IMG/VR virus record: IMGVR_UViG_3300005805_000046
Span: 32,001 to 96,000 of that record
DNA: 64,000 bases
Source: a virus
Reading direction: 5' to 3' (one strand)
The notes under the pieces are model-generated. The model worked only from the letters and a program-made list of their open reading frames with translations. It had not been told where the DNA came from and did no database searches. A program made the translations under genes and the position numbers. Each line of letters begins with the position of its first letter. Positions within the stretch are counted from its first letter, which is position 1. Of the stretch, positions 40,205 to 64,000 are shown piece by piece.

Positions 40205-40370
40205 TATTCTAGTTACTATGTTTTTTTCATCTTCTTCTCTAGTCTTTTCATCTTCTTTTCTAGTTTCTTTAGGTATTCCATTTCTTCTTCATGGAATTCC
40301 TTGTTTTCTTTTTCTATCTTTTTGAATATTTTTTTCCAGAATTTCATATTATATTCTCCTTGTTTTTAAG

Positions 40371-40724
40371 TGGAGGCGGCGGCATCGAAGCCGCGTCCTA
40401 GTAATACCGTTTTGATCTTTTCTACAAGTTTATTTTGTTCATAAATTAAGCGAAATTACAGAACAAACAAGACTTATTTCGCCTTACCAACTGCTCTTAA
40501 CCTACAACCCGCTGGATATTGTAAGTGCAGAGGGATTTAACGACAGACTTTTGATCGCTACCCTCATTCGCAATCGCAGTCTGTTACTGCCTGTTTTTAT
40601 TAGGCAGCAAGGGCTAACTGAGTTGTGCCAGTTAAAGCATTTGATATGATGATTAAAGAGGCCAACATATCATCCTCTACTTGCTAAAACCAATCGGTTA
40701 TTATAGTCGAAACCTTTCGCCCCC
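40371..40724 (-). ncRNA. ssrA: tmRNA, predicted tag (A)GTTQLALAA
   Basis: 5' GGGGGCG pairs with 3' CGCCTCC-A including G3-U70; T-arm GCGGC-TTCGAT-GCCGC; tag ORF 40600-40629 reads GGC ACA ACT CAG TTA GCC CTT GCT GCC TAA. Confidence 0.93.
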
Positions 40725-59811: not shown

Positions 59812-59837
59812 GTCCGCAACTCTGCGTCAGCCTCCGA

Positions 59838-59924
59838 CGGAATCTGAGGGATTCGAACCCCCGGAGGATTTTAACCCTCGGCGGTTTAGTAAACCGCTGC
59901 CTTAAACCACTCGGCCAAGATTCC
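59838..59924 (-). tRNA. tRNA-Ser(ACT)
   Basis: GGAATCT/AGATTCC acceptor with G73, long variable arm, GCGGT-TT-ACT-AA-ACCGC anticodon arm. Confidence 0.9.
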
Positions 59925-59927
59925 AAA

Positions 59928-62912: not shown

Positions 62913-62984
62913 TAGCCCCAAGAGGAATCGAACCTCTAACCAGTGCTTAGAAGGCACTTGTTATATCCATTTAACTATGGGGCC
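62913..62984 (-). tRNA. tRNA-Arg(TCT)
   Basis: Full cloverleaf; AGTGC-CT-TCT-AA-GCACT anticodon arm. Confidence 0.95.
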
Positions 62985-62985
62985 G

Positions 62986-63176
62986 TCAATGCCGCAGGCC
63001 CGCCACGGCGTCCCGTGCGGGTTATGCGGTTGATGGTGGAGCCACTTTACCATCGGTAATATACTAGCAGCAGACCCCTTCCCAGCAACCACGCTGGTTA
63101 TCAGTTGGTTAGACTCTGCTAGGTGGGTATTTCCCACATCATTACGCGGGAGTTATCCCGCCGCACTATGCCTAAA
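62986..63176 (-). ncRNA. unidentified multi-helix structured RNA
   Basis: Six GC-rich helices, no ORF, TTGACA-N17-TATAAA promoter at 63182-63210. Confidence 0.6.
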
Positions 63177-63210
63177 ATCTATTTATACTGGCATAGTCCA
63201 GTTGTGTCAA

Positions 63211-63741: not shown

Positions 63742-64000
63742 TCATGAGAGAAATCCCTGACAACCCAAAGCCACAAGATCGCGCAGCAACTTCTCGGCCG
63801 CTGCTGGTGTGGGCAGAGTCACGCTATTACGACCCTTGCCGTTTACAAAACGACAAAGGGTGTAATCATACGCACCCATCAGTTCATCGCTCCAATCCTT
63901 CGACTCCTTCAAGCCCCATCCGGTAGCAAGCCGAATAGCCTTGATGGAAGCGATCCGGTTGTCGGTGGTCATTCCACCGGTAATGGTCACCGTTCGGTAC
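63742..64000 (-). CDS. ribosomal protein bL12 C-terminal-like domain protein (5' end probably outside the window)
   Basis: RIASIKAIRLATGWGLKESKD resembles the bL12 CTD motif KI..IK.VR..TGLGLKEAK. Confidence 0.7.
   Translation of the reverse strand, partial: YRTVTITGGMTTDNRIASIKAIRLATGWGLKESKDWSDELMGAYDYTLCRFVNGKGRNSVTLPTPAAAEKLLRDLVALGCQGFLS

Follow-up and report, generated by a model that had tools for sequence, protein, structure and literature searches.

A pistol ribozyme followed by a putative new double-pseudoknot RNA upstream of tRNA-Arg in a clade of uncultured phages

In the 64,000-nt stretch of DNA analysed here (the window), taken from a 153.6-kb IMG/VR phage record, the minus strand carries a structured interval between an 82-aa gene, ORF82 (63459-63211), and a tRNA-Arg(UCU) gene (62984-62912), and the question is what this interval encodes. 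A preliminary description of the letters had read it as one unassigned non-coding RNA of ~190 nt, transcribed from a promoter of its own together with the tRNA. The observation behind it is real: a conserved structured non-coding RNA lies before tRNA-Arg on the same strand, and the span from ORF82 to the tRNA has no predicted terminator. The interval was mis-parsed, and it consists of three elements in a row on one transcript, namely a known ribozyme (pistol), a new RNA family, here called X, and a generic leader hairpin (H4) before tRNA-Arg. The first 63 nt of the presumed single RNA belong to pistol and the last ~40 nt to the leader hairpin, and what stands of the earlier assignment is X, which has no Rfam match. 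All coordinates are window positions on the minus strand.

The locus and its pistol ribozyme

ORF82 is conserved, with 75 homologous loci in IMG/VR (53-93% identity), and matched neither a Pfam nor a PHROG family; it ends with a stop codon at 63213-63211, 8 nt upstream of the pistol ribozyme. At the other end, tRNA-Arg (62984-62912, called by ARAGORN; RF00005, 67.2 bits) directly follows the feature, as had been described. The region is GC-rich, again in agreement with the earlier reading (0.53 in the feature vs 0.38 across the window), and the tRNA strand of the feature folds more stably than its shuffles (z -2.8). The helices named before are all present: GCGGGA/TCCCGC (63161-63146), GTGGG/CCCAC (63137-63123), CTAGCAG/CTGCTAG (63122-63064), GATGGT/ACCATC (63054-63032) and the nested CCGCA/TGCGG hairpin (63029-62992). 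An ORF of 58 codons (62961-63137) does overlap the feature and the tRNA, where no ORF had been claimed, but it shows no sign of being a gene.

The window encodes an rIIA homologue that is ~30% identical to those of T4-type phages, and when 50,697 phage records were searched for cultured relatives, only the tRNA itself matched the region. In the Rfam scan of the window, tRNA, tmRNA and pistol were the only families reaching the gathering score. The phage-encoded tmRNA (40368-40724; RF00023, 113.9 bits) has the tag peptide GTTQLALAA, the tRNA cluster includes a tRNA-Ser (59836-59925) whose ACU anticodon, with A at position 34, is unusual, and another 82-aa ORF upstream of ORF82 (63742-63990) weakly matches the C-terminal domain of ribosomal protein L7/L12 (23.7 bits, just below the cut-off).

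The pistol class dates from 2015 (Harris et al. 2015, PMC4604425), and much is known of its structure and chemistry. Positions 63202-63140 match the Rfam pistol model RF02679 over its full length (model positions 1-68 of 68) with 53.7 bits, compared to a gathering score of 34.5 bits; by family membership this segment is a pistol ribozyme, for which self-cleavage is predicted. The 5' third of the feature is thus placed in a known family, and the X part is unmatched in Rfam at E<=10. When the segment is aligned to the family consensus, the core positions are all present, including the AUAAA linker, UUAGGC and the GCG after the pseudoknot. P1 is formed by 63202-63198 and 63191-63187, the P1 loop (63197-63192) forms the 6-bp pseudoknot with 63170-63165, the linker AUAAAUA spans 63186-63180, P2 pairs 63178-63176 with 63143-63141, and P3 pairs 63161-63156 with 63151-63146. 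P3 and the 3' strand of P2 flank the G-U cleavage dinucleotide, and the predicted cut, at the position of the family's G^U site, is G63145^U63144. Three parts of the preliminary description take on a different identity here: the pistol pseudoknot accounts for the ACTATGCC/GGCATAGT 'inverted repeat', the AUAAA linker for the TATAAA '-10 box', and P3 for GCGGGA/TCCCGC. Like known members, the window copy is full-length with all of these parts and is located in phage DNA, as most of them are; it differs in covering only the first 63 nt of a longer feature and in its short P2 of 3 bp, and the latter counts against the main model proposed below.

Among 20 related loci scanned, 19 have a pistol above the threshold, with 51-61 bits. 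Variants were read directly against each other, with no formal pair count, and among 26 distinct clade variants compensatory changes were found in the pseudoknot (ACUAUG/CAUAGU, ACUGUG/CACAGU, CCCGGC/GCCGGG and CCCAGC/GCUGGG), in P2 (AUU/AAU, CAU/AUG and CUU/AAG) and in P3, which argues that the ribozyme is under selection. Several loci carry a modified pistol region. In four of them (L064, L068, L389 and L397) an extra hairpin of ~25-40 nt is inserted after the pistol AUAAA, and the L064 pistol, with the hairpin in its linker, is not above the Rfam gathering score. In L066 (IMG/VR contig 3300032116_000124, 3266-3547) a small ORF of ~45 codons lies between ORF82 and X with a pistol on each side, and each of the two small genes thus has its own pistol 3' of it.

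Fold and covariation of X

Downstream of the predicted cut lies X (63144-63032), an orphan RNA of ~113 nt with two pseudoknots. In a search of 451 nt with permissive filters, X had no Rfam 15 match at E<=10, and X in the 20 related loci gave nothing above the Rfam gathering score. A first covariance model was built from 12 close X copies and recovered divergent subtypes at E values of 1e-9 to 1e-3; a second model aligned 67 X copies, among them 53 distinct sequences, taken from IMG/VR and a complete pattern scan of metagenomes.

The resulting fold comprises hairpin H1 (63137-63133/63127-63123), an outer stem of 7 bp (63122-63116/63070-63064) and two stacks; in each, a strand further upstream is paired to the 3' portion of a hairpin loop. 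In the first stack, pseudoknot PK1 (63110-63106 with 63091-63087) is placed on the inner hairpin S (63097-63093/63086-63082), whose loop (G followed by UGGUU) pairs with AACCA upstream. In the second, PK2 (63078-63073 with 63043-63038) is placed on hairpin H3 (63054-63049/63037-63032), whose loop contributes its 3' portion as the partner of the strand that follows the conserved GAA (63081-63079). AGUCU (63115-63111) follows the 5' strand of the outer stem, and an AU-rich linker (63063-63055) leads from its 3' strand to H3. Conserved unpaired nucleotides (GUCU, AUAA and GAA) surround the pseudoknots.

Across the 53 distinct sequences, 95.2% of the cells pair and 22 of the 30 pairs are compensatory, i.e. 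changed on both sides, counts that are inflated for the nested helices, to which the alignments (A4 and A5) were fitted, and unaffected for PK1 and PK2. None of 500 shuffles reaches this level of pairing, and sliding the partners reduces it to 26-55%. Counting on a MAFFT-only alignment supports S, PK1 and H3, and the outer stem has fitted counts only. Since both pseudoknots were left out of the covariance models, the support for them is independent of the alignment method. PK1 varies as AAGCCA/UGGCUU and AAUCA/UGAUU; in PK2 all seven pairs are compensatory, with more than 13 distinct pair types, and its strand scores 6.1 against its own loop and 3.9 against mismatched loops (permutation p<5e-5). 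H1 varies with compensation as well, and four of the helices named before covary in homologues. The frequent G-U pairs assign the RNA to the tRNA strand. The preliminary description had left room for a rapidly degraded tRNA leader. Such a leader would be free of constraint on sequence or structure beyond the RNase P site, and the 22 compensatory pairs in 53 distinct sequences speak against this. With more than 50 distinct sequences, X is, as far as comparative sequence analysis can tell, a new and strongly supported RNA fold.

Two other pairings were tried and set aside. Pairing of the AUAA linker with the 3' arm strand (GAUAA/UUAUC) is possible in the D2 subtype, but covariation points to the H3 loop as the partner of that strand (e.g. 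UUGUC/GACAA). A single junction closed by GTAAT/ATTAC, as the preliminary description had it, exists as a helix in the window but occurs in only ~12 of 29 variants and shows no covariation. H1 is a plain hairpin in the window, and in the D2 subtype (L187:4953-4985 and other copies) it is itself pseudoknotted: a GGUU on the 5' side is paired to GACC from the loop of the GUUGCA/UGCAAC hairpin, and this pairing covaries by eye (AGUC/GACU, GGCC/GGCC and GUUCU/AGGAC).

A compact double-pseudoknot core with invariant unpaired nucleotides would suit a new ribozyme, one that cleaves itself or carries out another reaction on the neighbouring RNA, and self-cleaving ribozymes do cluster together, a tendency that led to the discovery of pistol itself (PMC4604425; PMC6765202). 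However, X resembles no Rfam ribozyme family at E<=10, no conserved candidate cleavage site was identified in it, and structured RNAs near ribozymes have earlier failed to cleave (PMC6765202), and we regard this as the least probable of the readings weighed here. A resemblance to the hairpin ribozyme via GUAUAUUAC in the linker was also considered and dropped, as GUAUAUUAC is not kept in homologues.

Genomic contexts of X and the ORF82-tRNA slot

A search for X elsewhere in the 153.6-kb genome found the single copy only. In IMG/VR, all 29 distinct X copies have a pistol directly before them, and in the complete metagenome scan 47 of 48 true X copies follow a complete pistol, which in two of the 47 has a hairpin inserted in its linker. 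In every variant X starts 4-20 nt after the cleavage site. The one exception, L390 (metagenome contig Ga0208048_1008375, 3200-3430), has lost the 3' half of the pistol and has X intact, with P1 and TTGACA-16-TATAAA kept directly before it; this natural deletion apparently arose via ATAG microhomology. In other phages, ~53 matches to the pistol pattern pass the pseudoknot check, and none of them carries X or has a tRNA within 420 nt, so adjacency of pistol and tRNA is not a general rule. X occurs in a single clade of uncultured phages and in the same genomic slot each time, and the fixed order of pistol and X could therefore partly reflect shared descent and not functional need.

The constant fusion of X to pistol, together with the riboswitch-like conservation of unpaired GUCU, AUAA and GAA around the pseudoknots, raises the idea that X is a sensor domain and pistol an allosteric ribozyme, in which a ligand or protein on X decides whether P2 holds the cleavage site or the AU-rich linker sequesters it. 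The window does allow GUAAUG (63145-63140) to pair with UAUUAC (63061-63056), and this helix would compete with P2 and the cleavage site, which also counts against the main model proposed below. However, the sequestering helix is the poorly conserved, non-covarying one described above, sister phages have pistol without X, and L390 retains X without a working pistol. In addition, the linker is transcribed ~85 nt after the ribozyme, and pistol can therefore fold first. Taken together, these points make a sensor function very unlikely.

What follows X varies much more than what precedes it. Among 60 distinct loci, the tRNA comes immediately after X/H4 in 28 and is separated from it by a -10-like box in 31, and in one (L304) an ORF with a ribosome-binding site lies downstream, with X/H4 located in its 5' UTR. 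In 58 of 59 homologous loci, Arg(UCU) is the tRNA that comes next. In a distant group (L074-76) an X-like RNA comes directly after pistol and is followed by an intrinsic terminator. This type scores 12.3 bits and was found only with filters off; since it lies directly after pistol and retains both pseudoknots in altered sequence (GUCAA/UUGAC and AGCGGU/ACCGCU), it is probably an X homologue, with weaker support than the rest. This variation downstream of X/H4 suggests that the constant unit is pistol-X and not X-tRNA. Since a -10-like box, an ORF or a terminator can follow it, X is not merely a tRNA leader, and a leader role may apply too in loci where it abuts the tRNA. Some loci differ in other ways. 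In L404, L417, L423, L427, L454 and L460 the tRNA after X/H4 has a long variable arm (type II body) with a UCU anticodon, and ARAGORN calls it Arg(tct). In L383, L391, L398, L416, L422 and L429 an alternative H4 hairpin, CCGAUAAAACCG...CGGCUAUCGG, lies between X and the tRNA; it ends with CUUUUAC directly 5' of the tRNA and is terminator-like, and the tRNA is without its own promoter.

These contexts bear on whether X instead protects in cis, with its knotted fold of two pseudoknots and a 5'-hydroxyl end shielding the downstream RNA, be it a tRNA precursor or an mRNA, from 5'-end-dependent decay. The close start of X behind the cleavage site in all variants, its place in the 5' UTR of the L304 ORF and its direct contact with the tRNA in 28 of 60 loci agree with such a shield. 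It fits less well that the L074 type has a terminator next and hence no cargo to protect, that a -10-like box separates X from the tRNA in about half of the loci (31/60), that RNase P cuts out tRNAs and makes a 5' shield unneeded, and that relatives manage with a plain hairpin. We therefore consider a protective 5' structure fairly unlikely.

The relatives in question also show what the third element is. H4 (62992-63029) is a nested, GC-rich leader hairpin with a GACG loop (63012-63009), followed by a 7-nt spacer, CAUUGAC (62985-62991), and its inner stem covaries. In its short form the gap between ORF82 and tRNA-Arg is 49-66 nt long and holds a TATAAT box and a hairpin, the 65-66-nt type being a TATAAT box, an H4-type hairpin and the tRNA. 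Since this form has H4 without pistol and X, H4 belongs to the tRNA slot and is not part of the new element. The H4 loop motif GGGACGCC was considered as a dispersed repeat and occurs once in the window. In the long form of the gap, pistol is followed by 160-205 nt of structured RNA. Between these forms are L004, in which pistol abuts the tRNA and X is missing, and L067, with pistol and a promoter-like stretch and again no X.

The slot also bears on the promoter from which the preliminary description had started the RNA. TTGACA (63210-63205) is a perfect -35 hexamer with a 17-nt spacer to the TATAAA of pistol, and a perfect -35 hexamer in promoter register with AUAAA sets this copy apart from the known pistol class. 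The sigma-70 criteria used were -35 and -10 hexamers 16-18 nt apart with A at -11 and T at -7. TATAAA is without a T at -7, and TTGACA-N17-TATAAA is not among the promoters that the scan calls, although the letters are there as described. The scan does call three neighbouring promoters; the ORF82 promoter lies at 63529-63501. The sigma-70-type promoters nearby are what could make the RNA an early one, as the preliminary description had supposed. In distinct upstream contexts, TTGACN is kept at 15-17 nt in ~14 of 25, and ~11 of 25 are without a -35.

If the main transcript nevertheless started there, the ribozyme would mostly be incomplete and the product would be a ~190-nt leader with a 5'-triphosphate. 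This agrees with the perfect -35, its spacing and its retention in over half of the contexts, with L390, which retains exactly the promoter part, and with the pistol-less relatives, which have a promoter at the same place. On the other hand, the scan calls the three neighbours and not this site, the '-10' is conserved as the pistol AUAAA core, many contexts are without the -35, and P1 and the pseudoknot, which lie upstream of such a start, are intact and covary, which implies that selection acts on transcripts reading through. An internal start as the main one is thus very doubtful. A weak promoter buried in pistol and giving uncleavable transcripts is possible, and L390 hints at it by keeping the promoter part after loss of the pistol 3' half; transcription from its TTGACA-16-TATAAA could give X nearly the same 5' end. 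In any case the TATAAA hexamer is fixed by the ribozyme core. The 5' end of X is most likely made by self-cleavage at G63145^U63144 and not by the proposed promoter.

A proposed processing cassette

The reading we favour, to which we give a probability of about 0.6, is that the locus is a processing cassette in which pistol cleavage and RNase P together release a 160-nt RNA with a 5'-hydroxyl, and X is the cargo. Read-through from the ORF82 promoter (63529-63501) would give an mRNA-pistol-X-H4-tRNA transcript, to which a weak promoter inside pistol may add. In vivo, pistol would cut itself between G63145 and U63144. At its 3' end the ORF82 mRNA would retain the ribozyme in folded form with a 2',3'-cyclic phosphate, an end that may make this mRNA more stable, and the downstream RNA would begin with a 5'-hydroxyl 7 nt ahead of H1. 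Since the tRNA starts 7 nt after H4, RNase P is expected to cut between 62985 and 62984, in line with the 3'-end release proposed in the preliminary description, which would free tRNA-Arg(UCU) and leave the 160-nt RNA of X and H4. As cargo, X would be a stable RNA, presumably acting in trans, that needs a defined 5' end near H1, supplied by pistol, and it would most likely bind a protein or a small ligand. Phage-encoded repair of the 5'-OH and cyclic phosphate ends was considered and rejected, as no RtcB, Rnl2-type ligase or AAA_33 kinase domain was found in the 153.6-kb genome.

The size and conservation of X are typical of RNAs with demanding biochemical jobs. It is quite unlikely, in our estimate, that X is a new catalytic or ligand-sensing RNA class working with pistol, as a second ribozyme or an aptamer; if it were, pistol-X would be a natural two-part RNA device in phages.

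Parts of this arrangement recall other phage RNAs. GOLLD and ROOL are ornate, conserved non-coding RNAs of phages that often lie beside tRNA genes and whose function is unexplained; they are 500-800 nt long and have Rfam models, whereas X has ~113 nt and no Rfam match at E<=10. In T4, rnaC and rnaD (species 1 and 2) are small stable RNAs from the tRNA region whose role is unexplained (PMC3014915). Like X they are small, structured, co-transcribed with tRNAs and next to a tRNA-Arg, and the phage of the window is T4-related. They differ from X in lying 3' of the tRNA (the T4 annotation gives the order tRNA-Arg, rnaD, rnaC), where X lies 5' of it, and the T4 tRNA region has no ribozyme at this site. 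A search of T4 at 70.7-71.4 kb with the X model R2 and filters off gave a best score of 6.9 bits for a partial match (E 0.13), and similarity of X to rnaC or rnaD was therefore dismissed. Theta (HDV-like) ribozymes adjoin phage tRNAs and trim their trailers (PMC10879173), and they share with the window pistol that a small self-cleaving ribozyme lies within a phage tRNA transcription unit and has a proposed role in end processing. Theta is a different ribozyme class and lies 3' of the tRNAs, whereas the window pistol lies upstream with a separate RNA in between; in the sister phage L004, pistol is directly adjacent to the tRNA.

Pistol has no established natural function, and members have been noted near phage genes (PMC4604425, PMC6765202). 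The pistol of the window differs from these in that a conserved structured RNA is fused to its 3' cleavage product, and our literature search found no paper on such a fusion. The novelty of the locus thus lies in X and in its fixed pairing with pistol. The phages of this clade offer a natural comparison at one slot, with promoter and hairpin, pistol alone, pistol and X, or a half-pistol promoter and X. The arrangement suggests a natural job for the pistol class, and the candidate role is that pistol cuts an mRNA apart from the non-coding RNA downstream of it and would give the latter a precise 5'-OH end.
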